In this document: piece after piece, positions 13,547-34,938 of the stretch
Layout of the letters: every line of letters starts with the position of its first letter
Position numbering within the stretch: position 1 is the stretch's first letter
Assembly: GCA_020048155.1 (NCBI GenBank)
Contig: JAIFMY010000022.1
Span: 4,356-68,355, forward strand
Reading direction: 5' to 3'
Length of the DNA: 64,000 bases
Origin: Bacteroidota bacterium
Lineage (GTDB): Bacteria > Bacteroidota > Bacteroidia > Bacteroidales > DYOH01
The notes under the pieces: model-generated
Databases searched by the model: none
What the model was told of the DNA's origin: nothing
What the model saw: the letters and a program-made list of their open reading frames with translations, nothing else
Program-made: the position numbers and the translations under genes

Positions 13547-13945
13547 TTAACTAAAGACAATAAGCGATTTCATTTTGGAAACAAGAATATCCAAGTTAAT
13601 AGGTTTGGTTACGTAATCGTCGCATCCAACTTCATACGCCCTATCTTTTTCGGAAGCCATAGCAAAAGCAGTTTGTACAATGATGGGGATATCATGATTA
13701 ATGCTTTTAATTATTTCGATGGCTTGATATCCATTCATAACAGGCATCTGAATATCCATGAGAATGATATGAATATGGTTGTTTTTTTTTACAAAATCTA
13801 CAGCCTCTTGTCCGTTATTGGCTCTAAAAATGTGAGCGCCGGTGCGTTTGAGGGCTACCCTAATAAGCTGATAGTTGATCTCCTCATCTTCAGCAATTAG
13901 AATATTCACATTTGTCCAATTCGGCAATTCTTTATTCATATTCAA
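13547..13945 (-). CDS. Stand-alone response-regulator receiver (CheY-like)
   Basis: The motifs ILIAEDEEIN, the phospho-acceptor context IILMDIQMPVMNG, and VQTA and TKP are present. No output domain follows. Confidence 0.9.
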   Translation of the reverse strand: MNMNKELPNWTNVNILIAEDEEINYQLIRVALKRTGAHIFRANNGQEAVDFVKKNNHIHIILMDIQMPVMNGYQAIEIIKSINHDIPIIVQTAFAMASEKDRAYEVGCDDYVTKPINLDILVSKMKSLIVFS

Positions 13946-16434: not shown

Positions 16435-19400
16435 TGTCCATTTGTTTTATTGCCTCTCAATTCCTCTATAGCCTTTTTGTAGTTCATTTCGGCTACTTTG
16501 TAAGAGGTTATATCAAAACTCACCACTACTATCCGGTTTACTTGTTCATTCTTGTCGAGTACTGGAATATAATACTCAGAGAAATAGAAAGTTTTATTTT
16601 TAACTTCGTATCTATAAACCCTCTGTTGTGTAATACCTGTGCGTATTTTACTCCACAATACGTGATATTTCAGATAGTTCTCAATTACGGCCATATCTTT
16701 ATGCATTTTTCGCTTCATGTCCTTTTCTTCAAGTTCGAGAAGGCTCATCATTGGTTGGCTCATGCTTATGAGATTGGTTTCCAAGTCGTATTCTGTAAGT
16801 AAAAGGTTTCCACCAAGTGCATTCATAATTCCGTCGAGGCCGTCAAGCTCCGAGTTGCTGAATTCAACGCTTTCTTTGTACAAAACCAGGCTCTCAATCA
16901 GCTGTTTTTCATTACGTTCAGCTTCTTGTTTATATTGTTCAAATTGTTTAATTGTATCTATTTCGCTGGTTTTATTCCAACTCAGATTCAGAATTTTCAA
17001 AAGGTTCTTATTTTTATCAAGTATTGGTTTGTATATTTCCGACATGTAAAGACGTTCGTCTCCAAATTGCAATTCGAAATCTCGCGAAAGCATATTACCA
17101 CTGGCGAGTTCGTTCCAGAAATTTTCAAAATCGCGGCTATCGGTGATGGTTGTATAGTTTCTCAGATTCTTACCGAGTACATCATCGTTAATTCGATAAG
17201 TTTTCTTCAAAATGTCATTCACTTGCAAAATTGTACCGCCTTTATCGAAAATTGCAACACAAACTGTATCATTGAGCGATTCCATAAATGCATCATACAT
17301 AGCTGTATTTATATAACTATCTGTTTGTAGATTGACAAGTTGCAAGAAATAATTTTGCATTTCGAAATTGGTAATTTGCAATTCGTGTGTTTTGTGGTTG
17401 AGTTGCTGATGTATTTCTTTGTAGGTGGTAATATTGAGCGCTATAACCATAACTTTGTAAAAAGCTCCATCAGTATCGTAAAGCGGTGTATAGGTTTCCT
17501 TGAAGTATAGATTTTCTTTGCTGACTTTAATTCTCGAAATTACATTTTTCACAATACCGGCCTTCAAGTCGTTCCAGAATTGGAAATAGGATACTTCGTC
17601 AAAATCTTCAATTTCGCAAAAATCAGGATGATGGATTCCGGTGAGTACTTCGCGGGAAATTCCGAGTAACTTAAGTGTATTGGTGCTTATTTCGATAAGC
17701 GACCCAAACTGATTGAACTCATAGGTATAAGCAGCATTATCAATGGCAAGAATCAAACCTTGCATTTTGAATTCTTTGCGTGCCGATTCTTCTTGTGTAG
17801 CTTGCAATTCTTCAAGATTCTGCCTCATTTCTTCCTCTTGCGATGCCAGCTCTTCTGATTGTTTCTTAGACTGTTGCAAAAGCAACACGGTACGTTGATT
17901 GATGAGCACTGATGAAATGGTAAGGGCGATGCTTTCAGCAAGTTTTTCAACAAATCGAATTTTAAAATCTGCGATTTCTACCAGGGATGCAATCTCAATT
18001 ACACCTACAATATTATTGTCATATTTAAGCGGAACTATAAGCAAATTGCGGGGGGAAGTATTGCCAATACCAGAGGTGATAGATAGGTAATCTTCGGGCA
18101 AATTGGTTAAATGGATAATATCGCCTTCAACAGCGCACATGCCTACAAGACCTTCTTTCAGTTTCACTTGCTTCTGCAAATATTTCTTTCGGTTGTATGC
18201 AAATGCAGCTACAAGCTCAAGATATGGATCGCGTTTGTTTTCGTTCTGATATAAAAAAATACCACCTTGTATGGCCTCAAGATATCTTATAAGCTGGCTT
18301 ATAATACTATGCGTAAGTTTACTTATGTCATTGGTATCTTTGCGCAATAAATCGGAAAATTTGGAAAGGCCAATATTAGTCCAGTTTCGTATTTCGTCTT
18401 CTTGTCGTCTGTTCTTTTCTTGCTCTTCAGCTTGGTATAGTTCATTACGCATGTTGAGCAAGGCATTTCCGAGTGCATCATTCTCTGACAATACGGTGTA
18501 CTCAGCATTTAAATTGCCTGCACCTATTTCTTTAGCAAAACTGGTGGTTTGTCTAAGTCCGTCTATAATTTTATTGATATAATTGAGCATCAGATGCAAC
18601 TCAGCCGATGCTTCAATAGTAGGTATTTTTGTTATAAAAATATCGCCATTCGAAACCTTTTCAAGTAAAGTGTTGATTTGCATAAGTGGACGTACCAATC
18701 TTCTGGAAAGCAGGTATGACAAGAAAAAAGCCAATAAAACACCAAGAAATGTGAGTATATAAAATGTAAATCTCTGGTTCTGAAACAAATCTTTGTATGA
18801 TTTTGCAGAAACCAGCGATATAAGCGCCCACGATTTTCCGGTATTTCCAACTAAGAAAGGTGTAACACATATTTGTTGTTGTTCCTGCATGAATTCCAAT
18901 TCGTTTACGAATGTGAATTGGCGACCGCTCGGAATTTTGTCAATGACTTTGTGTTTCAAATTGAGCTCGCGATACATTTCACCAAACTGAGCATTCACAT
19001 TTCGGTCTTCATGGTGGGCAACAATCTGTCCGTTGTCTGAAATAATAAAAGAAGATGATTCCGAAACTGTATTTCCGCCGGCAATCATTTGCTTGAGCTG
19101 ATTTATAGGAATATCATATCCAACGACTCCTACAAAAACTCCATTGCTGAAAATGGGCACAGCCACCGAAATACACCATACTTCGTCTCTTACATCTCCT
19201 GTGTAAGAATAGCGGGTAGGCTCAATAATCACTTCGCGCTGTAAACTTCTTACTGTAAGATATTTATCGTTTTGGAGAAGAAAATTTTCTCTGTCAATAT
19301 TGATATTTTCCTGCCCTACAAAGTTTTTGTATTTATAAAAAGAAAGAATAAAACGTCCTGAATTTTTTTCATCCGGATTTACATATTGTTTGTCTAATGA

Positions 19401-19757
19401 ATCGAGAGCCATAGGTTCCCAAATCATCCATGCGCTGATGGCAGAGTTATTGCCTTCGAGTGTTGCTCCCATCAGGTGAGTGAAGAATTTTCGTCTTTCT
19501 GCAGTACTTACAGTATTATATTGCGATGAAAGTTCAGACAATTGTCTTGCCAATTGAAAAGTTTTATCAATCTCGTTAGAAATAAGTTTGGTCTGTGAGT
19601 TGGCAGTATTTATGAGTTCTGTAGATTGCCAACCCGAAGAAATATTATTGAGTATCAGCTCGCTATAAAAAACAATAAGCCCGAGTACAATAATAGCACC
19701 CGTACCAAAGAAGGTAAAAATAGCCAGGCTTATGGTTCGCAATCTGAGTTTCTTCAT
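16431..19757 (-). CDS. Membrane sensor with TM, dCache-like domain, TM, HAMP, GAF, coiled coil and about 4 PAS, and no recognisable output domain
   Basis: This 1108-aa protein is a paralog of the downstream 770-aa gene and shares the same HAMP/GAF core (AEYTVLSENDALGNALLNMR; RNWTNIGLSKF; IRYLEAIQGGIF; VPLKYDNNIVGVIEIA). Its stop overlaps the next ATG (ATGA at 16431..16434). Confidence 0.75.
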   Translation of the reverse strand: MKKLRLRTISLAIFTFFGTGAIIVLGLIVFYSELILNNISSGWQSTELINTANSQTKLISNEIDKTFQLARQLSELSSQYNTVSTAERRKFFTHLMGATLEGNNSAISAWMIWEPMALDSLDKQYVNPDEKNSGRFILSFYKYKNFVGQENINIDRENFLLQNDKYLTVRSLQREVIIEPTRYSYTGDVRDEVWCISVAVPIFSNGVFVGVVGYDIPINQLKQMIAGGNTVSESSSFIISDNGQIVAHHEDRNVNAQFGEMYRELNLKHKVIDKIPSGRQFTFVNELEFMQEQQQICVTPFLVGNTGKSWALISLVSAKSYKDLFQNQRFTFYILTFLGVLLAFFLSYLLSRRLVRPLMQINTLLEKVSNGDIFITKIPTIEASAELHLMLNYINKIIDGLRQTTSFAKEIGAGNLNAEYTVLSENDALGNALLNMRNELYQAEEQEKNRRQEDEIRNWTNIGLSKFSDLLRKDTNDISKLTHSIISQLIRYLEAIQGGIFLYQNENKRDPYLELVAAFAYNRKKYLQKQVKLKEGLVGMCAVEGDIIHLTNLPEDYLSITSGIGNTSPRNLLIVPLKYDNNIVGVIEIASLVEIADFKIRFVEKLAESIALTISSVLINQRTVLLLQQSKKQSEELASQEEEMRQNLEELQATQEESARKEFKMQGLILAIDNAAYTYEFNQFGSLIEISTNTLKLLGISREVLTGIHHPDFCEIEDFDEVSYFQFWNDLKAGIVKNVISRIKVSKENLYFKETYTPLYDTDGAFYKVMVIALNITTYKEIHQQLNHKTHELQITNFEMQNYFLQLVNLQTDSYINTAMYDAFMESLNDTVCVAIFDKGGTILQVNDILKKTYRINDDVLGKNLRNYTTITDSRDFENFWNELASGNMLSRDFELQFGDERLYMSEIYKPILDKNKNLLKILNLSWNKTSEIDTIKQFEQYKQEAERNEKQLIESLVLYKESVEFSNSELDGLDGIMNALGGNLLLTEYDLETNLISMSQPMMSLLELEEKDMKRKMHKDMAVIENYLKYHVLWSKIRTGITQQRVYRYEVKNKTFYFSEYYIPVLDKNEQVNRIVVVSFDITSYKVAEMNYKKAIEELRGNKTNGQ

Positions 19758-19877: not shown

Positions 19878-20273
19878 CTAAACATTTGTTGAGTGCGCAT
19901 AATGCAGTATTATTTGTTGAATTTTGGTAAAAGCTTCCTGATCTTTTATTATAAATTCATTTATATTTTCTCTATTCAATTGGTAAATAGCTTCCAGATC
20001 ATTTTTAGCAGATAGAATGATGGTTCGAATGTTTTTATTGGTAGCCTTAATATCTTTCATAATCTCCAATCCGTTTCGGGCTGTATTTGAATGGTTGTTG
20101 AGATAATAGTCCATAATAACAAGCTGAGGGTTCAAGTGGAGATTGTTGAGGGCATCTTCACCATTCTGGAAAGGCACTATCTTAAACTCTTTCAATTCAG
20201 ATAAATAGTCTTTTAACATTTCCAGAAAAACCCAATCATCATCTACTATGAAAACGGTAAGTTTATCATTCAT
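19878..20273 (-). CDS. Stand-alone response-regulator receiver
   Basis: The motifs VFIVDDD, LVIMDYYL, ILSAK and IIKD are present. The gene starts 3 nt after the hybrid kinase stop. Confidence 0.85.
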   Translation of the reverse strand: MNDKLTVFIVDDDWVFLEMLKDYLSELKEFKIVPFQNGEDALNNLHLNPQLVIMDYYLNNHSNTARNGLEIMKDIKATNKNIRTIILSAKNDLEAIYQLNRENINEFIIKDQEAFTKIQQIILHYAHSTNV

Positions 20274-20276
20274 ACA

Positions 20277-22790
20277 TTACTTTATTTTAGTCCAGTCATC
20301 TATCAATCCTTCAAGCAGATGCGCTGCATGCATCCACATAATTTCAATATTACCGGCTTTTGCATTTACACTTAATCTAAATTGTTCGTTATCAATATTT
20401 TGTTCTATTTCAAGTGCGGATATGTGAATTTGCTTCATGCCCAAATAATTCATAGTACTTTTGATAGAGTGGGCAATAGTACGAACTTTTTTCCAATCAT
20501 TATTCACGCAAGCTTCCTTCAATCCATAGATTTGTAAAGGAATTTGCTCCAGATACAATCTCAGGATGTCAATCATTTTAACGTAATTGTGGTTGTATAA
20601 CGAAAGTAACATACTAAAATCGAAATCATTGGCAGTAAGAATACTGTTTGGAACATTTTCAGTACTATCTGCTATCGTAGTTTTCGGAATCCCTAAATTC
20701 AACTTATTACCTGAAAGCAATTTCTGAATTTCGGCATATAGTTCGTTTGGTATGAATGGTTTGGTGAAGTATGAATTCATTCCTATTTCCAGACATTTTT
20801 CGGCCTCATCTTTGAGCGCATGTGCAGTGAGAGCGATGATAGGAACTCTACATGCAGGTTCGTTTAAATGGTTTCGTATATATTTGGTGGCTTGCATGCC
20901 GTCCATTACTGGCATTCTAATGTCCATTATCACTATGTCTATTCTATTGGTTTGCATCATTTCTATCCCCTCTTTACCATTGTTGGCTATAAGAAAGACT
21001 AAGTTTTTGTCAAAAACCTGCAAACTATCAATAAGTAGCCGTTGATTTATAAGATTATCTTCAACCACTAGTACAGTATACTTATCAGAATTAATGGATT
21101 GAACTATAGACAGACCTTTGGGTATAACTTCGCTTTCGGAATTTCCCAATTTGAGTTCTATGATAAATGTAGTACCTAAGTTGGTTTTGGATTCTACATG
21201 CATTTCTCCCCCCAATCCTTCTATTAGGAATTTGGCAAGTGATAAACCAATACCCGTGCCAAGCGGATTGATGTATACACCGTTCTCAATTTTTCCGAAC
21301 TGGTTAAAAAGCATGCTAATTTTTTCTTCGGGAATGCCAATACCAGTATCTTTTATATAAAACTCAATTTTATTTTCTATACGCCTTCTTACCCCATATT
21401 CGATAAATCCCTTTGGAGTGTATTTTATTGCGTTAGATATGAGTATAAGCAATACTTGTTTTAGCCTAATATGGTCGGTAACAAAAGTATATCCTTCCGG
21501 AAATTCAATATTTACTTTTCGAAGTTCAACATTATTATTATTGCCAAATATTTTGATTTGGTTTTCGATAGAGACCTGCAAATCTTCGAAAAACTTACTC
21601 ATAACCACTGGCTTAGGGTTCAGGATGAGCTGCCCAGACTGAATTTTTGCAATGTCAATGATATCATTTATCAGAAAAAGCAAGTTGCGGGTGTTGCTGC
21701 TGATAAAGTCCAGATATTCTTCTTTCTGGTTTTCAATCAAATCTTTGGATTGAAGTAGTTTTGTGAATCCAATAATGGCATTAAGAGGCGTTTTTATTTC
21801 ATGGCTCATATTGGCCAGAAATATAGATTTTATGTGATCTGCTTCCTCGGCGCGCAATTTTGCAGTATTGAGGTTCTCTTCGAGCAGTTTTTGTTGTGTT
21901 ATATCTTGTATAATGCCTTGAACTTTGAAATTTTTCTGTTTCCCATTATTGTTGGATGCTATTAGCTTGGCATGTCTGATGCCGGCCAATGGATGATTTA
22001 TTACAAATTCGACTTCAAAATCCTTGTTATTGAGTATAGAATCATCGAAAGAAATAAAAATTCTTTGGGTATCGTCTTTAGAAAGATTCACAAAAAGATC
22101 CTTTATTGTAAATAAATCTATATCAGACTCTACACCTAATATATTTTGGGTTTCGTCGCTAGTTCTTATGGTTGCATTGCTTTCTATATATTCCCAGTGA
22201 CCTATTTTAGCAATGCGCTGTGCTTGCCGCAACCTTTCTGATGCCAACATGGCAGTCTCGTCCTTTATATATGCTATCAAACAATCAGACAAATATGAAC
22301 CAGCAAGCTTTAAAAAGTCGAGTATTAAATCGGGAATTATGTATGGTTTGGTGGAATGAACAATCTGTACAGCCCATATATGGTTCTCAACATAAATCGG
22401 AATATATACCTGATTGATTTTAACTTTTACCGAAACACCTTCATCTTTATTTATCCAGTTACTTACGAATGCAATTAAATATTTGTCAGTAAATACGTTG
22501 ACGAAAAATTTTTCAACAAAATTGCTAACCAATGGCGTATTTGAATGAAAATAGGCCAAATTAAAAGTATCGGTCACATATGTATGTTTACTAAAATATT
22601 GGTTGGAAGGATGATAAACCAATGAAACAGCTTCGGCATTACATTGTGAATTTATAATAGATAAATATTGATCAACTTTTTGCTGAATGGATAAATCGGA
22701 AGATAACAAAGTTGAAATTTCGATAAGAGCAGACCAAAGATTTGATATATTACCGCCGGATGATGAGTTATCTTGAAGATTTTTTTCCAT
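20277..22790 (-). CDS. Soluble hybrid sensor histidine kinase (N-terminal GAF-like region, PAS, HisKA, HATPase, REC, HPt)
   Basis: The protein has the H-box SHEIKTPLNAIIG and ATPase boxes (ISNAIKYTP, DTGIGI, GTGIGLS). The REC domain reads VLVVEDN…VIMDIRMPVMDG…TKP, and the C-terminal HPt reads HSIKSTMNYLG. I saw no TM segment. Confidence 0.9.
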   Translation of the reverse strand: MEKNLQDNSSSGGNISNLWSALIEISTLLSSDLSIQQKVDQYLSIINSQCNAEAVSLVYHPSNQYFSKHTYVTDTFNLAYFHSNTPLVSNFVEKFFVNVFTDKYLIAFVSNWINKDEGVSVKVKINQVYIPIYVENHIWAVQIVHSTKPYIIPDLILDFLKLAGSYLSDCLIAYIKDETAMLASERLRQAQRIAKIGHWEYIESNATIRTSDETQNILGVESDIDLFTIKDLFVNLSKDDTQRIFISFDDSILNNKDFEVEFVINHPLAGIRHAKLIASNNNGKQKNFKVQGIIQDITQQKLLEENLNTAKLRAEEADHIKSIFLANMSHEIKTPLNAIIGFTKLLQSKDLIENQKEEYLDFISSNTRNLLFLINDIIDIAKIQSGQLILNPKPVVMSKFFEDLQVSIENQIKIFGNNNNVELRKVNIEFPEGYTFVTDHIRLKQVLLILISNAIKYTPKGFIEYGVRRRIENKIEFYIKDTGIGIPEEKISMLFNQFGKIENGVYINPLGTGIGLSLAKFLIEGLGGEMHVESKTNLGTTFIIELKLGNSESEVIPKGLSIVQSINSDKYTVLVVEDNLINQRLLIDSLQVFDKNLVFLIANNGKEGIEMMQTNRIDIVIMDIRMPVMDGMQATKYIRNHLNEPACRVPIIALTAHALKDEAEKCLEIGMNSYFTKPFIPNELYAEIQKLLSGNKLNLGIPKTTIADSTENVPNSILTANDFDFSMLLSLYNHNYVKMIDILRLYLEQIPLQIYGLKEACVNNDWKKVRTIAHSIKSTMNYLGMKQIHISALEIEQNIDNEQFRLSVNAKAGNIEIMWMHAAHLLEGLIDDWTKIK

Positions 22791-22802: not shown

Positions 22803-25376
22803 TTAAAGATGCGCAAGATCGCATTTTATACCTATTACCAAAATATCATCCACCTGATCTCGGCTTCCCTTCCAATCTGTGTAGGACTGATGTAATATGT
22901 TTTTTTGTTCGTCGAAAGGTTTGAGATGTATATCTACCAAGAGTTCCTGCATTTTTTTTGCCATGAATTTTCGGTCTTTGGGTCCGCCAAACTGGTCGGC
23001 ATATCCATCTGAGTAAAGATAAATAACATCATCAGGCAAAAAAGTATCTTCTATACTATTGAACGACACCTCGTTCTGATGGTACACACCTATAGGCATG
23101 CGGTCAGCATCAAATTTAGTTAGCTCACCATTTCTTATCCGGTACATGCCATTATTGGCTCCTGAGAACTGAAGTGTACTGTTGCTTCTATCGAGTATCA
23201 CCATTGACATGTCCATTCCGTCTTTGGTTTCAGTACCCGTTTTATTCAATTGGTGCAAAGATTCTATCACCTTACGGCGCAACTCATTGAGCAGTTGGTC
23301 TGATTTAAAATTAGGGTTTACGGTGATAATTTCGTTGAGGAAAGAAATGCCAAGCATACTCATAAGAGCCCCAGGTACACCATGCCCAGTGCAATCTGCA
23401 GCAGCCACAATGATGCGCGAACCCACTTGTCGCGCCCAATAAAAGTCGCCACTCACAATATCACGTGGGTTGTAATAAATGAAAAACTGATTGATAGAGC
23501 CTTTTATAATTTCAAGTGGGGTAAGCAATGCTTGCTGTATGCGCGATGCATACTGAATACTATCAACAATTGCTTTTCTTTGTTCCGAAATTTTATCGCG
23601 CTGTTCAATCACATAATCGCGTTGTATTTCAATTTCATCACGCTGAGCTGTTATTTCTTCCTTTTGTTGCTCAAGCGCATGGTTCTGAAGGTTGATTTTA
23701 TCGTTTTGAAGTTGAATTTCATCGCGCTGCTTCTCAATTTCTTTTTTCTGAGCAAAAAGCAAAGCATTGTCGCGCTTTTTTTGTTGGTAGTTTTTGAATA
23801 TAAGAAAAGCAACAGCAATCATTAGCAGCAACCCAACCGAAACGGCATTTCTGATAAGTTTTTGTCTTTGCAATTCAGCTTGACTTTTTATATCTTTTTC
23901 GTGCTGCTCAAACTCAATCTGCTTTTGTTTTTGGTCGAATTGATACTGCATGGCCAGCTGAGTGATTGTCTTTGTCATTTCTTCGTTGTTGAGGCTATCA
24001 CGCATTTGCTGCGAAAGGGCCAACATATCAAATGCATTCTGATAATCGCCTGTAGCGGCATATGCCTGGCTCAGATGATAACTTGATTCTCGTTTTATAT
24101 CCATCAGTTTCATCTGATTTCCCATAGAAAGTGCTTGTTGCAGAATTATGATAGCATTTTTGAAGTCCTTCATTTTGTTGTATATACTGCCAATATTGTT
24201 GTATCCAACAGCCATTCCCTTTAAATCACCAATTTGTTCCATGAGTTGGGCCCCTACCCTATAGTTATTCAATGCATCGGCCGTTTTGTGCATGCGTTTA
24301 AAAACTTCGCCCAAATTGTATCTGGCGGAGGCTTCAATTTGTTTGATTCCAAATTGTGTGCTCATATCTAATGTTTTCTGAAAATAATTGAGCGCTTCAG
24401 CCAAGTGTGAAGTATCTTTGTCAGCCATTTTAAGGTAAACATTTCCGAGGTTGTTGTATATTTGGGTTATGCCTACCATATCCGAAAATTCTTCACGTAT
24501 TTTCAAACTTTTGAAATAATAATCGAGACTCGATTCGTAATTTTCTTGTTTCAGGTGAATATTGCCAACATTGTTCAGTGTAGTAGCCATGCCGGCTATA
24601 TCGCTAATTTCTTCGCTTATACGCAAGCTTCGCAGATAAAAATCAAGTGCTTTGTCGTATCCACCTTGTTTTTCGAAAATATTTCCAAGGTCGTTATATA
24701 CAAAGCCTATTCCCCTTTTCTCGCCAATTTCTTCAAAAAGAACGAGAGCCTTGTTTAGTTTTTCGAGAGCAGTGGTATAATCTCCCTTATTTAGGTGTAC
24801 CGTGCTGATGGTATAAAGTGAATACCCAATCCATTTTTTGTCACCCAGTTCTTCGTTTATGCGCAGCGAACGTTCGTAGTAATCGAGGGTTTTTGTAAAA
24901 TCGCTGAAATTAAGATAGATATTTCCAAGATTGTTATAAGATGACGCCAGACCTTCTTTATTTTCTCTATTGTCAGGCTCGTCTTCTACAATCTTCAATC
25001 TGATTTCAATGCTTTCTTCAAAACTTTTAATCGAATTATCGGCATCGAAACTATTGAGATAATGAATACCGATGGCATGCAATGCCCGGGCTTTTGCAGC
25101 AGGCATGGCATCTGGTGAAGATAAAATCTCGTTTACAAGAGCTTCGGTTTGGTCACTCCTCTGAAGTGCAAGTTCATATGCGTAGTCCGCTTTCAGCCTC
25201 ATTTGCTCAGATTTGTTGCTGGTTTTGAGGATGAGCGATTTCAATGAGTCAGCTTTGTTTTGTGCAAAAACTGAATTGCATAAAACTGTGATCAGCAGTA
25301 CTATATATATATGTTTGAATGACTTCATTCTTAAATGTTTATTTACTGATTTTTTTTTGCATATAAAACTAATCAT
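22803..25376 (-). CDS. Periplasmic TPR sensor, TM, long heptad helix and SpoIIE/PP2C phosphatase
   Basis: The 857-aa protein has a signal peptide (…NSVFAQNK), many TPR-like repeats (YNNLGNIY…) and a TM segment (AVSVGLLLMIAVAFLIF). PP2C motifs VSGDFYW, DCTGHGVPGA, SDGYADQFGG and QVDDILVIG are present. An alternative start at 25328 is possible. Confidence 0.85.
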   Translation of the reverse strand: MISFICKKKSVNKHLRMKSFKHIYIVLLITVLCNSVFAQNKADSLKSLILKTSNKSEQMRLKADYAYELALQRSDQTEALVNEILSSPDAMPAAKARALHAIGIHYLNSFDADNSIKSFEESIEIRLKIVEDEPDNRENKEGLASSYNNLGNIYLNFSDFTKTLDYYERSLRINEELGDKKWIGYSLYTISTVHLNKGDYTTALEKLNKALVLFEEIGEKRGIGFVYNDLGNIFEKQGGYDKALDFYLRSLRISEEISDIAGMATTLNNVGNIHLKQENYESSLDYYFKSLKIREEFSDMVGITQIYNNLGNVYLKMADKDTSHLAEALNYFQKTLDMSTQFGIKQIEASARYNLGEVFKRMHKTADALNNYRVGAQLMEQIGDLKGMAVGYNNIGSIYNKMKDFKNAIIILQQALSMGNQMKLMDIKRESSYHLSQAYAATGDYQNAFDMLALSQQMRDSLNNEEMTKTITQLAMQYQFDQKQKQIEFEQHEKDIKSQAELQRQKLIRNAVSVGLLLMIAVAFLIFKNYQQKKRDNALLFAQKKEIEKQRDEIQLQNDKINLQNHALEQQKEEITAQRDEIEIQRDYVIEQRDKISEQRKAIVDSIQYASRIQQALLTPLEIIKGSINQFFIYYNPRDIVSGDFYWARQVGSRIIVAAADCTGHGVPGALMSMLGISFLNEIITVNPNFKSDQLLNELRRKVIESLHQLNKTGTETKDGMDMSMVILDRSNSTLQFSGANNGMYRIRNGELTKFDADRMPIGVYHQNEVSFNSIEDTFLPDDVIYLYSDGYADQFGGPKDRKFMAKKMQELLVDIHLKPFDEQKNILHQSYTDWKGSRDQVDDILVIGIKCDLAHL
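23553..23741 (-). repeat. 21-nt periodic coding repeat encoding 8 consecutive I-x-x-Q-(R/N/K)-(D/E)-x heptads
   Basis: The translation reads IEKQRDE IQLQNDK INLQNHA LEQQKEE ITAQRDE IEIQRDY VIEQRDK ISEQRKA and then IVDSIQY. On the plus strand the DNA shows recurring atcgcg(c/t)tg units. Confidence 0.8.
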
Positions 25377-25679
25377 TTACTAAGTTGAAGCCAAATTTAT
25401 GTTTAACTGGCAAGATATTCAAAATGAACATGAATAAGACTGCCAACAGACTTTGTCTACATGATAAAGCCAGATATTGCAATACTAATATAGACTTTAT
25501 TTTTTACTCTACACGAAATTGGATTTGAAAAGTCTAATGCAATTTTTTCATTTTGGGAAACGTGTGGGTTATGAACTCAATTATATGTTGTAATACAATT
25601 TTTATACCATAGCCCAGGTTAAATGTGAATCATATTTGCAAACCATACAAAAGGATGATTTTCGTCAAGCGATAATTGC

Positions 25680-26708
25680 TTATTGTATCTTTATATCACT
25701 TTCATTTTCAAGGACTTTACTTTTAATATTGGTAAGTTCGCTTCTAAGCAAATCAAGTTCCTTGTTGGTAATATCTATTACAAATTTCAATTTGCGGTGT
25801 CGCCCCAATTGTATAACCAATACGATGATTATAGAAATTATAGAAATAAATATGGTTACAGCCAGATATACTTTAAACTGAGAAATCAACTCATTGCGTT
25901 GCTCCACATTTTGTTTGGTAACGTTGAGTTGTCGTCTGAGTTCGTCTTCAAGTTGGTGTTTAGATGCTTTGAGGATTGAGTCGCTCACCACTTTCAGAGA
26001 ATCGTTGAATATTTGAACAGATTGAAGCTCCGATTGCGAAGTATCTGTTTGTAGCGCATTTTTTGATTTAGAATTTACTTCAGATTTTTGTAATTGATTG
26101 AGTTTGCTTTTATAAAACGCAATATTTTTTTCGTCTTTCTTTACTGTATATATTTCAATCATATCAATGTAGCAGAGTGTTAACAATTGCACATTATCTT
26201 CAAGTGGCAATAGCAGTTCTTCAGCAATTTTGTATTTCATTAGCGCATCTTCTGTACGTAAGATTTTGGAAAGTATGCGCCCGAGGTTAATAAGCCCGGC
26301 AGCCTGACTGTGAAATGCTTTGGCTTTGGACATAGCCTCGCAGGCTTTTTCAAGAGGTTCTATTGCATTTTCATGCTGTCCTAGGTCCACAAAAAGCAGG
26401 CTAAGTTCTTGGTTAACATCGTGCACGAGATAATTATTTTCTGCTTTATTTGCAGAATATGCAGATTTTTTGAGAAACTGAATGGCAAGCCCTCTCAGGT
26501 TTTTTGATTTGTAAATAATGGCTATATCCTTGTAATGATTGGCCGCCTTCTCGTAGGCATTATCTTGCAGACTAATTTCAGCTTTTTGGTTGAGTTGCTC
26601 AATTTGTTGCTTTTCCTCAAGAGTCAAAAAAACTGTTTGAGTATACGCCAGTGTACTATATTTTAAGATTAATATACTAAATATGAGTGCTTTTATTATA
26701 AATTTCAT
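25680..26708 (-). CDS. TPR, coiled-coil and TM protein, a sensor-only paralog of the TPR-PP2C proteins that lacks the phosphatase
   Basis: The 342-aa protein has a signal peptide, TPR-like repeats and one C-terminal TM segment (YLAVTIFISIISIIIVLVIQL). It ends in a ~40-aa cytoplasmic tail with no PP2C motifs. Confidence 0.7.
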   Translation of the reverse strand: MKFIIKALIFSILILKYSTLAYTQTVFLTLEEKQQIEQLNQKAEISLQDNAYEKAANHYKDIAIIYKSKNLRGLAIQFLKKSAYSANKAENNYLVHDVNQELSLLFVDLGQHENAIEPLEKACEAMSKAKAFHSQAAGLINLGRILSKILRTEDALMKYKIAEELLLPLEDNVQLLTLCYIDMIEIYTVKKDEKNIAFYKSKLNQLQKSEVNSKSKNALQTDTSQSELQSVQIFNDSLKVVSDSILKASKHQLEDELRRQLNVTKQNVEQRNELISQFKVYLAVTIFISIISIIIVLVIQLGRHRKLKFVIDITNKELDLLRSELTNIKSKVLENESDIKIQ

Positions 26709-26752
26709 TACCTATAGGTGCTTGAGTGATGAGTTAAAGATAGGACAGATTT

Positions 26753-28750
26753 TTAAATTTTTACTCCCATAACTAAAATATCGTCAACTTGTTCGAAGTT
26801 GGCTTTCCAGTCTTCAAATTCAAAAACTATGGCTTCTTTCTGTTCCAACAAAGATTTGAAAGAAATCCGTTCAAGCATTTTGTCGAAACGGCTTGATAAA
26901 AACTTTTTATTATCTAAACCTCCAAACTGATCTAGTATTCCATCTGTGGTTAAGTATATCATATCGTTAGGTTTAATCTCTATCGTTTTCTCCTTGAATG
27001 GGTTTAATGTATCAAAAGAAATGCCAATAGGCATTTTATCTGGCTTGTATTTGGTAAGAATTTGATCGCGAACCAAATATACCGGTTGGTTGGCGCCTGC
27101 GTATTTTATGTTCATGGCATGATGATCAATGATGCACAGTGCCATATCCATGCCATCGTGGTTGTTGTAGTAGAAAGATCCCGTTTGTCGCAGAGTTTCT
27201 ATAAGTTTAGCCCTAAGCAGATCAAGTATATGATTTGCATTCTGGCTACTGGTTTTACTCATTATTTCATTCAGAAATGCAATACCAAGCATGCTCATAA
27301 GTGCCCCCGGGACTCCGTGTCCGGTACAATCTGCTACGGCCAAATATGTAAGGTTGTTGCGCTGATTTACCCAATAGAAGTCGCCACTGACTATATCGCG
27401 AGGCTTGAATATAATAAAATAATCGGTAAGAGTTTGTTTTAGAAGATCAGCAGGAGGGAATAGTGCTTGCTGAATGCGTTGGGCATAAATAATGCTATCA
27501 GTAATTTTTTTGTTTTGCTCGGCAATCTGGTTTATTTGTCTGATTGCAATTTCGTGCTGATGTTCAATTTTGTGCTTCTGTTGCCTGAGAGTTTCAAGTA
27601 GTGCTCTTTGGTTCGTAATATCAACGAAACTGATAAGAAAATACTGTTTTCCTCTGATTTCAAAATCGACATGGTTGAGCAGGATTGTCACTTTATTGTC
27701 TTTCTCAAGAATCAACTCGCACTCAATACCGTCATTCTGATTGTATTGACGAAGTTGCGCCAAGGAAGAGTCTATATTTAACCTCAGGTATTGAGTAAAC
27801 TCCTTGCCAATGATATCATCTTCAGAGCAACCCAGCATATTCATTGCCAATCGGTTGGTTTTAACTATTTCATTCGTTTCGGGAATTATGAGAAAAATGC
27901 CAGCCTGTATGGTATCAATAATTACTTTAAGAAAACGTTCATTTTCCCTAACTGCTTCTTCTTCTTTGCGTTTGGCGTCTATATCACGAATCAGACAAAA
28001 AATCTTTTTATCGCTTTCAGATCCTATTTTACTCAATTCTAACTCAGCTAAAAAGAATTTGCCATTTTGCTTTTTTACCACCCATTCTATAGAGGTTTGT
28101 CCCAAGGTAAGAGTTTTTCTCAAGGTTTCGGCCACGCCTTGGCTTATAGACTCGTAAGTGGGTTTTATAAAAAACTGGAGCGGAAAGCCTACCAGTTGGT
28201 TTCGGTTGTTGCACTCAAAAACGCTTTGCGCTTGGGTGTTGCAATCGGTAATAATGGAATCTTCGATGATAATAAACGGGGTGTGTGCATTTTCAAAAAC
28301 CAGCCTGAATTTATTTTCGCTTTGCAGCAAAGCCTGATGTTTTATGGCAAGTTTTTTTTCGATTTCCCGTTTGTTGATGGCCATTTCAATCACAACCCTG
28401 AGGTGCTTTTCATCAAAGGGTTTTATGAGAAAACCTAAAGGATCTGTTTTTTTAGCTTCATTTATGATATGAGCCTCTATGGACCCAGTCATAAAAATGA
28501 CTTTGAGCAAATATTTTTCGCGGATTATATTGGCAGTTTGAATGCCGTTGAGTTTAAATTTGAGGTGAATATCCATGAGTATGAGATCAACGGAATTGCT
28601 TTCGATGAATTCGAGCGCCTCTTCGCCGGACTCAATGATAACCATATTGGAATACCCAATCCCCCTGAGCATTTCTTTGAGCAGGATGCTTATGGGCGGG
28701 GAGTCCTCCACTATCAAAACCCGTTCATTCTGTCTATCCAGAAAATCCAT
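26753..28750 (-). CDS. Response-regulator receiver, 2 PAS and SpoIIE/PP2C phosphatase
   Basis: The REC domain reads VLIVEDSP…LILMDIHL…IKP, followed by two PAS-like modules. PP2C motifs VSGDFYW, DCTGHGVPGA, TDGILDQFGG and QVDDILVMG are present. Confidence 0.9.
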   Translation of the reverse strand: MDFLDRQNERVLIVEDSPPISILLKEMLRGIGYSNMVIIESGEEALEFIESNSVDLILMDIHLKFKLNGIQTANIIREKYLLKVIFMTGSIEAHIINEAKKTDPLGFLIKPFDEKHLRVVIEMAINKREIEKKLAIKHQALLQSENKFRLVFENAHTPFIIIEDSIITDCNTQAQSVFECNNRNQLVGFPLQFFIKPTYESISQGVAETLRKTLTLGQTSIEWVVKKQNGKFFLAELELSKIGSESDKKIFCLIRDIDAKRKEEEAVRENERFLKVIIDTIQAGIFLIIPETNEIVKTNRLAMNMLGCSEDDIIGKEFTQYLRLNIDSSLAQLRQYNQNDGIECELILEKDNKVTILLNHVDFEIRGKQYFLISFVDITNQRALLETLRQQKHKIEHQHEIAIRQINQIAEQNKKITDSIIYAQRIQQALFPPADLLKQTLTDYFIIFKPRDIVSGDFYWVNQRNNLTYLAVADCTGHGVPGALMSMLGIAFLNEIMSKTSSQNANHILDLLRAKLIETLRQTGSFYYNNHDGMDMALCIIDHHAMNIKYAGANQPVYLVRDQILTKYKPDKMPIGISFDTLNPFKEKTIEIKPNDMIYLTTDGILDQFGGLDNKKFLSSRFDKMLERISFKSLLEQKEAIVFEFEDWKANFEQVDDILVMGVKI

Positions 28751-28780
28751 TTGGTCAAACTAAATATGAATACTTTTGGT

Positions 28781-30997
28781 TTATACCTTATTTTTCCCGT
28801 TCAATTTCAACCCAATAAAAAGTATATCATCTACCTGTTCGTATTTTCCTTGCCACTTTTTGAGGGTTCTATCAATTTCATTTTTTTGTTGTGCTACAGA
28901 AATATTTTGTATAGATGTGAGCAATTCTTTAACTTGTTTTCTTGAGAATTTAAGCTTCTCATCGCCACCAAATTGATCTTGAAGACCATCGGTAAACAAA
29001 TATATAACAATTTCGTTATTGTGAGAATAGTTATAGGTTTGTTTGGTAAATTGTCTGTCCTGTTCTCTTTGCAAACCGCCAATAGAAATATTATCCCCTT
29101 TGAATTGATCAAACTCACCATCACGGAAAAAGAAAACAGGGTTTTTGGCTCCGGCAAATTCAAATATCTTGTTATGGTGATCAATCACGCATAAAGCCAT
29201 ATCCATTCCGTCTCTGTTATCGTTGTGCTCCTGATTAAGTGCTTTGCGTATAAGTTTATGCAATGAAAGTAGTATAAGGTCGGCACTGGTGATATCTTCG
29301 TAAGTAATTATTTGTTCGAGAAAAGAGTCGGCGAGCATACTCATAAAAGCGCCGGGCACACCATGTCCGGTGCAGTCTATTGCAGCTACTATGGTCATGT
29401 TTTTTTGTTTCAGATGCCTATACCAATAAAAATCACCACTCACCACTTCTTTGGGTTTCAAGAATATAAATGAGTCGGGTATAACAGTTTTCAAGCCTTC
29501 GGTATCAAGCAAAAGTGCATTTTGTATGCGGCTGGCATAGGTAATGGATGCAGTTATGTGCCTGTTCTGATTCTGGATTTCTTCTTTCTGAATGATTATT
29601 TCTTTGTTAGCAACTCCTAGTTCTTCCTTTTGTTTTAGAATTTCATCTTTCTGTTTGTTTATCTCCTCATTTTGCAAAACAAGCTTGTGGTTTGAACGGT
29701 TGAGTTTGCGGCTGCTGGTATAATAATAATATCCGAAAAATGCTATAAATATCAATCCTCCAAGCAAGCTATATGTTTGTATACGGCTCCTCTTCAGTTC
29801 TTCATTTTTGAGTGCCTGGTCGCGGCGCAAAATTTCAATTTCCTTTTCCTGCCTTTGCAATTCCAGACTTACTTGCATTTCAGTAAGTCTCTCCTTCTCT
29901 CTCTCTTCGGTTATCTCATTCATGGTGGATACCAGTTTCTCAAGATTGGTGTTTGCCTCTTTCAGATTGCCATTTTCTGAATATAAAGTAGATAAAAGGG
30001 CGTAGCTACTCTTATACTCTTCCAGAAACCCGCTGTTAGCTTCTATGGATTTATGAGCGAAATCTATGGCTTTATTGCTATTTCCTTGTTGATATGAAAG
30101 GTGGGCAAACTTATTATAAATGAGCGTAATGTTTTCATTCTGATTTGTTTCTTGACTAATGATAAGTGCCCTGTCGTAATAATCTATTGCTTCAGCATAT
30201 TCTTCATTCTCGAAATGCATATCACCGTAAAGTACATATATTTCGGCAACTCTGTCTTTGTCTGCTTCAATTTTATGGCGTATCAGTGCTTCTTTCAATT
30301 TAAGTTTGGCACCATCAAAATCTTCTTGCTGTATTTTTAGTTTGGCTAAGTGAAACAAAGATTCTGCAATGTCCTTATTTACTTTGCTTTTCATGCGATA
30401 AGCCAAAGCACTCTCAAGTTTTTGTTTAGCGGTTTCTATTTGCTCAAGCTGAAGATATACAAGCCCAGCGCGATCGTCGGCAAGTGCTATTCCCGAAAAA
30501 TTATTTGTTTGTTTGAATAAGTCGGCGGCTTTGCTATAATACTCAATAGCCACTTCTTCCACCTTTTGAATGGCATAGAGGTTCCCGACATGTATATAAC
30601 ATATGCCCATTTCATTTTTATCGCCAAGCTGATCGAACAACTTAAAAGCTTTGAAATAATAATCCATGGCCAAATAGTATACCTTTTGCTCGTTGTAAAT
30701 AGCTGCAATATTCTGGAACATACTGGCTTGCAAATGAGGCAAATTCAAGGATTCGGCCAGAATCAAGGCTTCTGCGGCAATTTCGATAGCTAAATAAGGT
30801 TTATCGGTACGGGCCAACTGAAACATATGCCCGAGTTTTTTAATAGCCACGGTATCTTGCCCATTCTCTTGAATATGCTGCTCATACTCAATACGCAGAG
30901 AGTCGAGATCTGCCTGAGCCGATGCTTGTGAATGAAACAAAAGAATGAATGTTATATAAACAAATACACTCCAGATATGGACTAAAAAATATTTCAT
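28781..30997 (-). CDS. Periplasmic TPR sensor, TM, heptad helix and SpoIIE/PP2C phosphatase
   Basis: The 738-aa protein has a signal peptide (…SQASAQADLD), TPR-like repeats and a TM segment (LLGGLIFIAFFGYYYY). PP2C motifs VSGDFYW, DCTGHGVPGA, TDGLQDQFGG and QVDDILFIG are present. Confidence 0.85.
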   Translation of the reverse strand: MKYFLVHIWSVFVYITFILLFHSQASAQADLDSLRIEYEQHIQENGQDTVAIKKLGHMFQLARTDKPYLAIEIAAEALILAESLNLPHLQASMFQNIAAIYNEQKVYYLAMDYYFKAFKLFDQLGDKNEMGICYIHVGNLYAIQKVEEVAIEYYSKAADLFKQTNNFSGIALADDRAGLVYLQLEQIETAKQKLESALAYRMKSKVNKDIAESLFHLAKLKIQQEDFDGAKLKLKEALIRHKIEADKDRVAEIYVLYGDMHFENEEYAEAIDYYDRALIISQETNQNENITLIYNKFAHLSYQQGNSNKAIDFAHKSIEANSGFLEEYKSSYALLSTLYSENGNLKEANTNLEKLVSTMNEITEEREKERLTEMQVSLELQRQEKEIEILRRDQALKNEELKRSRIQTYSLLGGLIFIAFFGYYYYTSSRKLNRSNHKLVLQNEEINKQKDEILKQKEELGVANKEIIIQKEEIQNQNRHITASITYASRIQNALLLDTEGLKTVIPDSFIFLKPKEVVSGDFYWYRHLKQKNMTIVAAIDCTGHGVPGAFMSMLADSFLEQIITYEDITSADLILLSLHKLIRKALNQEHNDNRDGMDMALCVIDHHNKIFEFAGAKNPVFFFRDGEFDQFKGDNISIGGLQREQDRQFTKQTYNYSHNNEIVIYLFTDGLQDQFGGDEKLKFSRKQVKELLTSIQNISVAQQKNEIDRTLKKWQGKYEQVDDILFIGLKLNGKNKV

Positions 30998-31167
30998 CTG
31001 GTATTAATTCTCAAAATATAAACTTAATTTCCGATGCAGTATGTTAATGGTAAAAGTAACTAAATTGTTTTTAAATAGAAAGTATGTTTCACGATAATAC
31101 AAAAAACCATTCAGTATTTTATAAGTGAGGGAAATATAGAAAAGTAAATAGAAATTTAAAACAGATT

Positions 31168-34100
31168 TCAGATTGAAATACCTACAACCAAAATATCATC
31201 AATCTGCGATGTTCCGTGCATCCACTTATCCATTTCATTCTCAAAAATAGTATATTGCTGTTGCATAGGCAAGCAAGCGGTTTGGTTGAGTAAAAGTTCA
31301 AGTCGTTTGGTAAGAAATTTTTTGCCCAAAGGTCCCCCAAACTGGTCGCGATATCCATCGGTAAAAAGATATAATTTATTACCAGGAATGTAAGGAAACG
31401 TATTGACTGTAAAAGCAGCCGGAAGCTCTTGCGAATAAAACCCAATAGGCATTTTATCTGGCTTTAGCTTAAACAGTTCATTGGTTTTGCAGGTATACAA
31501 ATAAGCAGCATTGTTAGCCCCTGCAAATTGTACGATTCCCTCAGATTTGTTTATGGTTATCATAGCAATATCAAGCCCATCTCGTGTTTCCCCGTCTTTT
31601 CCGCGCTGATGAAGAGCAAGAATGAACCTCTCGCGCAATTGGTTGAGTAATTCTGCCGGATTCAAATCTTCGAGTCGTTGTATCAGGTCATTGAGATAGG
31701 CCATACCCAGGAGGCTGAGAAAAGCTCCGGGAATGCCATGACCTGTGCAATCTGCAACGGCTATAAATGCAACTCCATTTTTGTTGGCAGCCCAATAAAA
31801 ATCACCGCTCACAATATCTCTTGGTCTATTGAGTATGAAATAATCGTCGAAAAGTGCTTCGAAGAGCAGATCGAGCGGCAACATGGCTTGCTGTATACGA
31901 CTTGCATACAATATGCTATCGCGCATTTCCTTGTTTTGCTTAAAAATCTGATCTCTTTGGGCTTCAATTTCAGCATTTTTGCGCATTATCTCTTGCTCAG
32001 CAGATTTTACATTGCTAATATCGGTATCTACGGCAATCCATCTGAAAATGGTTCCATCGTCGTTGAAAATGGGAGTAATATTGGTCTGATACCAAAAACT
32101 TTCGCCTTCAACTACATCGTGGGTTACGTAATTGGCAGATTTAAGGTTGAAATCAAAATTATTGATGATTTCTTCTAAATCTGGACGAACTAAATGCTTG
32201 ATTTTATTAAAATTAGAACCTTTAAAATTTCGAAATTTAAACTTAAATAACCGCATAAAACCTTCGTTCCACCATTCAAAATCCCCTTTCTCGTTCAGAA
32301 TTACAAAAGAAGAATCTGCTTGTTTGGTAATAAGTGAAAACTGACGCAATTCATTTACCGATAATTTGAGCATTTCTGCCTGGGATCTTAGTTTGTTGGC
32401 TTGCAATTCTATTTCTTCCTTTTGTTTCGTTATTTCGGCGGTGCGATCCTGAATTATTTTCTCCAACTCAATTTTCTTTAACATGTATCGTCTTTGATAC
32501 ATTTTCTGCCCCAAATAAAAAACAACAATGATAACCAACACATAGAAACCGTATGCAGCAAAAGTCCTGTAAAAAGGAGGGCTCACGCCAAAATGAAACT
32601 CCGTATCTCCGGTAACCTGCCCGTCTATATTTCTGGCTCTTACTTTGAAAATATATTTCCCCTCAGGCAAAGCATTGTACACTACTACATTCTGAGAGTT
32701 CACCATATTCCACCCAATATCCAGTCCTTCAAGTTTATACTCGAAATAGGGTTTATTCCCGGGCACGTAAGTTGGTAATCCGAATTCAAATTTTATTTTA
32801 CTCCTTTTGTAAGCCAATTCATCATTAAGTATCAACTTATTTGGGCTTATGGTCGAAATTTTGCTCAAGTCAAATTCCATATTCTCTTGGTTCTTTTGGT
32901 TCCAAAAGGTTATTTTACTGAAAACTACACTCGGAAGTTGAATTTTTGTCTGCTTATTGAGAATTCTGTTGATGAGCAAAAAATTATCGTAATCACCTAT
33001 ACAATACTCATTTTCATTAATTTCGGCAAAAACAATATTGTCAGAATTCGGGTTATATCCAGCAGAGTATTCGGGAGTGATATTAAAAATCTTATTCTTG
33101 TCGTAACAACCAGTATAATAACCACTCACTGTAATAATCCAGATTTTGTCATATTTTCCACTTTTCAATGATTTTATATGCAAACGTTTGCCGTTTATTA
33201 TACGATTAAACTCCTGCGCCAACTCAAAGCCACCAGCTTTGTCACCACTCGAGTGGACATATTTATAAACATTTTCATTGGCCAAAACAAAAAGATTATT
33301 GTGGAACCAAACCGGGGAATACAATTCGTTGGGGGGTAATCCATCCTTTTGGGTAAATCTTGTAATACGTGGGGATTTAAAATCTGAATTTGCATCAAAT
33401 TGCAAACGGTAGACTCCACTGTTGTCTACTCCCAACCAAATATTCCCGTCGTTATCCTCAGCTATTTGACGAATTTCACCTTCTATATCAGCAAATTTCC
33501 CTAGGCTGTCTAGTTTCACTGCATTTTGATCACTTCGTATTTTATACAAATAAATGCCTGAAGGATTGCCAACAAAAAGAATTTTGTGATTAATGCTATA
33601 CTGATGCGCAAAAAGAGGACTATATATGCTGGCAAGTTGCACAATACGGCTCTCTTCTGCCAAACAAATGCCTCGCAGATATAACCCAAGTAATATTTTG
33701 CGATTTTCGGTCAATTTTACTTCAACAAAACCTTGGTTATATATATTTTTACTATCTACTTGGCTGAGTTCGCCAGAATTCATCCCCAGGTTGGTGTCGC
33801 TTATATCCAATTTATATGTAGCTCCATGAGTACCTAAGTACAAAACATGATTGAAAAAGTATGCATTGCTAAGTAAGTGTTGCAACCCATCATTGCGCGT
33901 ATAGCTATTTATCGGAATATTTAGAAACACTTTATAAATTTCATCTTCCGTTGCAAGCCAGAGTGTCTGATTAGCATCCACAAACATTTCATATATTGCG
34001 TCCACTGTAAGGCCGTTATTTCTATTCAACTCATAGAGTTTATCGCCGTTTTTAGATACTACTACCATTCCGCCATTGAGCGAGCTATACGCAAAATTTC

Positions 34101-34902: not shown

Positions 34903-34938
34903 CCGATTGTAAAGTGTATCATATTTTACACCAAATAT

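Follow-up and report, generated by a model that had tools for sequence, protein, structure and literature searches.

Might a single device serve to control five bacterial phosphatases with five different sensors, and why would it occur in so many lengths? The question is raised by a stretch of 64,000 nucleotides from a Bacteroidota bacterium (contig JAIFMY010000022.1, positions 4,356 to 68,355; hereafter the window), in which five consecutive genes on the minus strand (22803-36255) encode SpoIIE-type PP2C phosphatases, each with a sensor module of its own. In all five proteins a segment built from [I/L/V]-x-x-Q-x-x-x heptads joins a PAS domain, a cyclic nucleotide monophosphate (cNMP)-binding domain or a membrane helix to the PP2C domain, and we argue below that this segment is probably a signalling helix. 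The five genes are as follows.

22803-25376, minus strand: 857-residue protein with TPR, a membrane helix, the heptad linker and PP2C.
26753-28750, minus strand: 665-residue protein of the order REC-PAS-PAS-PP2C.
28781-30997, minus strand: 738-residue protein with TPR, a membrane helix and PP2C.
31168-34902, minus strand: 1244-residue protein with a propeller/Y_Y_Y region, a membrane helix, PAS and PP2C.
34939-36255, minus strand: 438-residue protein with a cNMP-binding domain and PP2C.

All five proteins match the SpoIIE profile (Pfam PF07228) with 51.6-75.1 bits against a curated cut-off of 25. The motifs SGDFYW, DCTGHG, DG..DQFGG and DDIL are found in each of the translations and are invariant in our two homolog alignments (A1 and A2); an HMMER alignment read together with the published residue list maps them to the metal-binding residues D457, D474, G477, D600, G601 and D653 of SiaA.

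An initial annotation of the window, made from the sequence alone, had proposed that I-x-x-Q heptads precede the PP2C domain in fixed register in all five phosphatases. Counting each protein back in steps of seven residues from its conserved I(T/V)DSIxYAxRIQ anchor confirms this, and all five arrays share one register relative to the anchor. The segment that had drawn attention, at 23553-23741 on the minus strand, translates as EIEKQRDE...ISEQRKAIVDSIQ and corresponds to residues 546-608 of the 857-residue open reading frame (ORF). The arrays, their anchors and the associated features are these.

23571-23759, minus strand: 857-residue protein, nine uninterrupted heptads (LFAQKKE IEKQRDE IQLQNDK INLQNHA LEQQKEE ITAQRDE IEIQRDY VIEQRDK ISEQRKA), residues 540-602.
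23529-23570, minus strand: 857-residue protein, anchor helix IVDSIQYASRIQQA, which carries the heptad register on into the PP2C domain and aligns with IGDSLDYASLIQRA of SiaA-PP2C (6K4E).
23781-23846, minus strand: 857-residue protein, transmembrane helix, followed by a juxtamembrane KKRDN motif, from which the anchor is 70 residues (10 heptads) away.
27506-27589, minus strand: 665-residue protein, four heptads (LRQQKHK IEHQHEI AIRQINQ IAEQNKK).
27464-27505, minus strand: 665-residue protein, anchor ITDSIIYAQRIQQA.
29558-29683, minus strand: 738-residue protein, six in-phase heptads (LVLQNEE INKQKDE ILKQKEE LGVANKE IIIQKEE IQNQNRH), Gln being present in five and missing from LGVANKE.
29516-29557, minus strand: 738-residue protein, anchor ITASITYASRIQNA.
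31927-31989, minus strand: 1244-residue protein, three heptads (IMRKNAE IEAQRDQ IFKQNKE), two with Gln and one (IMRKNAE) with Lys at position 4.
31885-31926, minus strand: 1244-residue protein, anchor MRDSILYASRIQQA.
32371-32433, minus strand: 1244-residue protein, a second run (ITKQKEE IELQANK LRSQAEM) after an S-helix-like IIQDRTAE (DRT), between the membrane helix and PAS.
35689-35793, minus strand: 438-residue protein, five heptads (IVRQKEE IESQRDE IEAQRDM AEQQRDQ ILEQKRE), one with Ala at position 1.
35647-35688, minus strand: 438-residue protein, anchor ITDSIFYARRIQQA.

The claim that linker length differs between the paralogs holds, with a range of 3-9 heptads, while the individual counts in the initial annotation need some correction. 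The five heptads of the 438-residue protein stand; the eight of the 857-residue protein become nine with the addition of LFAQKKE, and the three of the 665-residue protein become four. The five reported for the 738-residue protein are those with Gln, to which LGVANKE adds a sixth in phase, and the three of the 1244-residue protein are in phase but include the Gln-less IMRKNAE. Runs of at least three such heptads are confined to the five phosphatase genes in the six-frame translation of the whole window. When residues were shuffled (2000 times per protein), a run of at least three arose in 0.3-1.3% of cases, a run of four once in 10,000, and a longer one never. The hybrid histidine kinase encoded next to the cluster (20277-22790) has no such helix; a general linker of this organism was considered and rejected, as this kinase and the other ORFs of the window lack a run of at least three.

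Which faces of the helix do these positions occupy? Many homologs carry an [E/D]RT motif upstream of the anchor, and its Arg falls at position 4 of our frame in 72 of the 73 that do. In the published definition of the S-helix, ERT occupies heptad positions c, d and e, with Arg at d (PMC1592074); position 4 is therefore d and position 1 is a, in agreement with the earlier assignment of these two positions to the core. On this numbering position 5 (Arg, Lys or Asn) is e and position 7 (Glu) is g, and the anchor prolongs the heptad pattern, its core positions being I, S, A, I and L. Arg or Lys at e together with Glu at g is the classical g-e' ion-pair arrangement of parallel dimers, and a beta-branched Ile at a is typical of parallel two-stranded coils.

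The lengths of the linkers obey the same frame. We measured the distance from an upstream landmark to the anchor for three independent landmarks, counting each distinct linker once. The juxtamembrane motif K-K-x-[A/D]-N lies at a multiple of seven in 77 of 77 linkers (14-70 residues), the motif at the end of PAS domains, hxxD[ILV][TS], does so in 20 of 20 (21-63 residues), and the [E/D]RT motif lies at 7n+5 in 72 of 73 (12-75 residues), as the initial annotation had predicted in expecting homologous linkers to vary by sevens. One phase is thus kept by 169 of 170 distinct linkers of 2-10 heptads; the landmark motifs may occasionally match inside an array, and an unbroken phase is demonstrated even then. 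A separate count with the PAS motif found all 15 true PAS cases in phase. Within the window, the PAS motif of the 1244-residue protein stands 35 residues before the anchor, and the D of the PAS DIT motif in the 665-residue protein, which the motif pattern does not catch, stands 39 residues (7n+4) before it, equivalent to 42. For cNMP-linked and REC-linked proteins, where distinct sequences are few, there is one informative pair, the 438-residue protein and homolog P0280, which are 35 residues apart. When distances were started at the charged residue that comes first behind the membrane helix, they formed two ill-defined classes (5 and 3 mod 7, p = 2e-22), which the motif-anchored distances resolve into the juxtamembrane and ERT classes. 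Simple control motifs gave mild non-uniformity only, as periodic composition predicts, and a GD control was skewed by one dominant REC-linked family. Homologs whose catalytic domains are 75-79% identical have linkers that differ by exactly seven residues, which shows the gain or loss of whole heptads to be the mode of change.

To sample relatives without selecting on the linker, homologs were sought with the catalytic domain alone (residues 603-857 of the 857-residue protein) among 1.84 billion cluster representatives, yielding 29,966 matches at an E-value of at most 0.001, the best 150 of which provided a linker profile. In these 150, position 1 of the heptad next to the anchor (heptad -1) is Ile in 73%, Val in 12% and Leu in 12%, position 5 is Lys, Asn or Arg, position 6 is Asp, Glu or Lys, and Glu predominates at position 7. 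Gln occupies position 4 in 68, 69, 56, 38 and 21% of heptads -1 to -5. A second, independent sample of 78 species-level Bacteroidota genomes gave the same heptad profile, with Gln at position 4 in 55, 70, 61 and 33%. Over both samples, position 1 is Ile, Leu or Val in about 95% for the three heptads next to the anchor, and in the set of 150 in about 97%. The proposed conservation of the Gln is thereby upheld at 55-70% for heptads -1 to -3. The best 80 genome matches are nearly all from Bacteroidota, and in the homologs the PP2C domain is preceded by the same type of linker regardless of the sensor, be it TPR with a membrane helix, Y_Y_Y with a membrane helix, PAS, REC, cNMP, YfiR or HAMP.

The heptad type is associated with PP2C and is not exclusive to the PP2C junction. 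Among related loci, 30 of 41 heptad runs abut the PP2C anchor and most of the others lie further upstream in the same proteins. The idea that the heptads belong to PP2C only fails on the membrane helix-PAS link of the 1244-residue protein and on one related locus, L074, where a run precedes a cyclase-like domain: a 536-residue ORF on the minus strand carries LDTQRKE IEKQKEF IEDQKKK directly upstream of a sequence resembling class III nucleotide cyclases (NILP...VTILFTDFKDFS), an assignment made by eye. Homologs in loci L024 and L067 share the layout of the 1244-residue protein, with a second IxxQ run that follows the S-helix-like motif and leads from the membrane helix to PAS.

In the two proteins modelled, structure prediction gives the arrays a continuous helical form that leads from the sensor or the membrane into the PP2C domain. 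AlphaFold2 models were built for single chains, with 97-107 homologs in the alignments. The 438-residue model contains one continuous helix of 91 residues (114-204), with a predicted local distance difference test score (pLDDT) of 89-97 from residue 121, which includes the five heptads and runs into the PP2C fold; its cNMP-binding domain is predicted poorly. In the 857-residue model one continuous helix of 104 residues (pLDDT 94-97) contains the nine heptads and likewise enters the PP2C fold. The 438-residue protein is predicted to have the alpha-beta-beta-alpha fold of PPM phosphatases, and a Foldseek search with the model returned SiaA-PP2C (6K4E) as the best solved match (TM-score 0.91, root-mean-square deviation 2.1 A), followed by RssB, SpoIIE and Rv1364c. 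SiaA-PP2C is also the only sequence-level match in the PDB (E = 5e-34, 31% identity). It forms a tight homodimer, in the crystal and in solution, through helices alpha1-alpha3, and its chain is traced from residue 407, the earlier linker residues being disordered (PMC7647112); by index count in the sequence alignment, residue 407 falls about nine residues before the anchor. By analogy with the 6K4E dimer and with published models of RsbU, the linkers studied here would pair as a parallel dimer.

An isolated straight helix in a monomer model could be read as a single alpha-helix of the ER/K type, a monomeric, unpaired spacer stabilised by charge, and E, K, R, D and Q do abound in the heptads, where salt bridges could form from i to i+3 or i+4 (E2-R5, R5-E2'). 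We regard this as very improbable. An ER/K helix has no conserved hydrophobic seam, whereas position 1 is hydrophobic in about 97% of cases and is mostly a beta-branched Ile; this seam runs into the helix that forms the dimer interface in 6K4E, and lengths that change in sevens and not freely point to coiled-coil packing. Only slightly less improbable, to our mind, is a different assembly, be it a trimer, a tetramer, an antiparallel pair or a rail on which a partner docks along a repeated binding surface. Trimeric coiled coils readily accept a buried Gln, the repeated and nearly identical QRDEI surface could bind a repeat-recognising partner, and RsbT does contact the linker of RsbU. Yet the relatives that have been solved or modelled (SiaA, RsbU, RsbP and RssB) are all dimers, a variable number of heptads speaks against a fixed docking site, and Pfam scans revealed no candidate partner gene in the window.

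An experimental precedent comes from RsbU, in which the linker stays flexible as long as RsbT is not bound (Baral et al., eLife 2025, PMC12143880). Gln94 of RsbU is buried where its two linkers cross, and the substitution Q94L activates the enzyme and lowers the KM for Mn2+ more than 50-fold; AlphaFold2 dimers of many PPM phosphatases show unfavourable polar residues at a and d (PMC12143880). Taking these data together with our own, we put the probability at about two in three that the heptad arrays form a marginally stable parallel coiled-coil signalling helix, which links a variety of sensors with the dimer interface and with the switch region of a phosphatase of the SiaA/RsbU type. We propose that two linker helices pair in parallel, with layers of Ile alternating with layers of Gln and Glu(g)-Arg/Lys(e') pairs flanking the core; with only half of the core hydrophobic, the coil would be marginally stable. 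Its phase would carry on unbroken into the helix that opens the catalytic domain (I-T-D-S-I-x-Y-A-x-R-I-Q) and contributes to the interface of the phosphatase dimer. Signals from the sensor (TPR with a membrane helix; REC-PAS; propeller/Y_Y_Y with a membrane helix and PAS; or a cNMP-binding domain) may alter the tightness or the angle at which the helices associate, and this would order or disorder the dimer interface and the switch helices of the phosphatase, setting metal affinity and activity. Changes by whole heptads would alter the length of the coil, and probably its stability, but not the angular phase between sensor and enzyme, and we suggest that this is why only such changes survive. 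The interpretation as a metastable signalling helix is supported by every test that we ran; its parallel pairing, its metastability and the direction of regulation we infer.

The main rival to a signalling helix is a constitutive stalk, in which a stable dimeric coil does no more than dimerise the enzyme and set its distance from the membrane or the sensor, Gln fixes register and partner specificity, and regulation lies elsewhere. Relatives of the same architecture have anything from 2 to 10 heptads, a range that a passive spacer accommodates more easily, long arrays such as the nine heptads of the 857-residue protein may be stable despite Gln at d, and SiaA-PP2C dimerises without the linker. 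We nevertheless think the stalk unlikely. The phase of the linkers is kept almost without exception, as it is where rotation or phase matters for signalling (PadC, LOV linkers); a single change from Gln to Leu activates RsbU; and a purely structural stalk offers little reason for a polar residue to be kept in 55-70% of core positions.

Several observations weigh against the signalling helix itself. The layers of Gln at d might be hydrogen-bonded and so stabilise the coil, and its metastability is assumed from general knowledge of coiled coils. Single-chain modelling returns a long helix no matter what the helix pairs with, and the dimer of these proteins is a deduction from relatives. Some homologs, such as P0062 and P0075, have linkers free of Gln, and in SiaA, the closest solved relative, the last heptad has Ala at position 4; the family can therefore do without Gln. 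Finally, Pfam scans of the 37 ORFs of the window found no partner-switch genes (a STAS or SiaC-like substrate or an anti-sigma-type kinase), which may lie elsewhere in the genome.

At the level of DNA, the heptads had been said to produce a 21-nucleotide periodic repeat. The periodicity is real, with a base identity of 0.49 at a lag of 21 and 0.52 at a lag of 42 against about 0.30 at other lags, but it is not a DNA tandem repeat. The 21-nucleotide units are about 51% identical as nucleotides, CAA and CAG codons are mixed, identical residues share a codon in only 55% of cases, and Tandem Repeats Finder reports only 2.2 copies at a 77% match. With units so diverged, codons mixed and tandem copies few, we attribute the periodicity to selection on the protein, and a recent DNA repeat was rejected. 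An unstable tandem repeat in which slippage changes the number of heptads, in the manner of a contingency locus, would account for the excess identity at lag 21 and for the difference of exactly 21 nucleotides between close homologs; the divergence of the units, their codon usage and the low copy number make it scarcely credible. On the opposite strand, a 147-residue ORF with an ATG start (23382-23825, plus strand) runs antisense to the heptad region of the 857-residue gene and is probably a by-product of the periodic sequence.

We view the linker as a lineage-specific sequence version of a known coiled-coil signalling helix, not as a new kind of system, and the idea of a metastable linker has already been published, both in the polar a and d residues of PPM linkers and in the S-helices that precede PP2C. 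It resembles the RsbU-type linker in being a helix that connects a PPM domain of the SpoIIE type with a dimeric sensor or adaptor and is continuous with the alpha0/alpha1/alpha2 dimer interface, and in having polar residues at a and d; that device has been proposed to be exchangeable among PAS, REC, GAF and HAMP sensors (PMC12143880). It differs in having Gln at d in nearly every heptad, 2-10 heptads and a stereotyped I-E-x-Q-R/K-D/E-E unit, and in that the sensors are fused to the enzyme, where activation of RsbU comes from the partner RsbT. The word 'heptad' is absent from that paper (PMC12143880), which thus reports no analysis of heptad length.

The S-helix (Anantharaman, Balaji and Aravind 2006, PMC1592074) is a coiled coil of about five heptads between sensor and catalytic signalling domains, those of PP2C phosphatases included, with polar residues in its dimer interface and a proposed role as a switch against constitutive activation. 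Many homologs of the present proteins have an in-phase ERT heptad directly before the IxxQ heptads. Among the five proteins, in contrast, the ERT signature is missing from the PP2C-proximal linkers, and DRT occurs only in the membrane-proximal helix of the 1244-residue protein. The polar d residue is Gln in nearly every heptad here, against one central Arg in the S-helix, and the length is variable where that of the S-helix is about 40 residues. SiaA of Pseudomonas aeruginosa (HAMP-PP2C, PMC7647112) shares the IxDSxxYAxxIQ anchor helix, its linker carries the ERT motif as do many homologs here, and its homodimer through N-terminal helices is known where ours is presumed. It is, however, proteobacterial, its linker is not Gln-cored (the last heptad is MAAAQKK), and the genes of its partners SiaB, SiaC and SiaD lie next to its own, whereas Pfam scans found no such genes in this window. 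The linkers of PAS, LOV and phytochrome kinases and diguanylate cyclases (PadC, PMC9587094) likewise differ in length by sevens, and there the coiled-coil register carries the signal; they include length classes of -4 and +2 and two overlapping registers, whereas the linkers here keep to one phase and have one evident hydrophobic seam, with Ile at a.

What appears to be undescribed is the I-E-x-Q-R/K-D/E-E unit itself, with Gln at nearly every d, in 2-10 copies and in one strict phase across a very large, mainly Bacteroidota clade; we found no published description of it, although the literature covered was limited and this is weak evidence of absence. We offer a further idea as a tentative one, more likely wrong than right: that this Ile(a)/Gln(d) heptad is a distinct, Bacteroidota-wide 'polar zipper' module that descends together with the SiaA-like PP2C domain and has found further use in front of PAS and cyclase domains. 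Each Gln layer would add a small and roughly equal increment of stability, and the number of heptads, from 2 to at least 10 in whole units, would be the dial by which evolution adjusts activation threshold or basal activity, the five paralogs with their 3-9 heptads being tuned differently. If the proposed mechanism is true, these proteins provide a natural length series, with the same enzyme and repeating unit, 2 to 10 heptads and many sensors, and hence a direct test of how the switching threshold of a signalling enzyme depends on coil length and on core polarity. The family also carries the model of the RsbU linker over to a very large, experimentally unexplored clade, and it suggests a design rule for engineered sensor-phosphatase fusions, in which whole I-E-x-Q-R-D-E units are added or removed.

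Linkers of at least 12 heptads occur in a large family of REC-PP2C proteins of about 610 residues (among homologs P0003-P0114), which have IxxQ units alternating with Q-less ones in a conserved pattern (…YIKQGDV ITSQRTK IQKQRDQ LAVEKKD IAKQKEL MEKDLDF IMKQGDK IAEQKHK…), and roughly 130 residues C-terminal of PP2C that have no Pfam assignment.

The neighbours of the five genes are chromosomal: rpoB/rpoC, L10, L7/L12, EF-Tu, the hybrid histidine kinase, two Cache-GAF-PAS proteins and single REC proteins. A metagenome contig of the Joint Genome Institute (JGI; 3300001765 MIS_1001056) carries an identical 438-residue protein with the same neighbours. Between two of the phosphatase genes lies a 342-residue ORF (25680-26708, minus strand), also called as a gene on the JGI contig. 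It matches TPR weakly, has a membrane helix, ends in a short helical tail (…DITNKELDLLRSELTNIKSKVLENESDIKIQ) and lacks PP2C; it resembles a sensor module without an output. Elsewhere in the window, at 14122-19757 on the minus strand, two paralogous proteins of 1108 and 770 residues, whose genes overlap by start and stop at 16431-16434, have Cache, GAF and PAS matches and no recognisable output domain; single REC genes at 13547-13945 and 19878-20273 flank them. A 680-residue ORF at 11415-13457 has no Pfam match. An ORF at 3702-4676 on the plus strand, unrelated to the heptad linker, combines a TseH-like type VI secretion effector domain with a C-terminal DUF6695.

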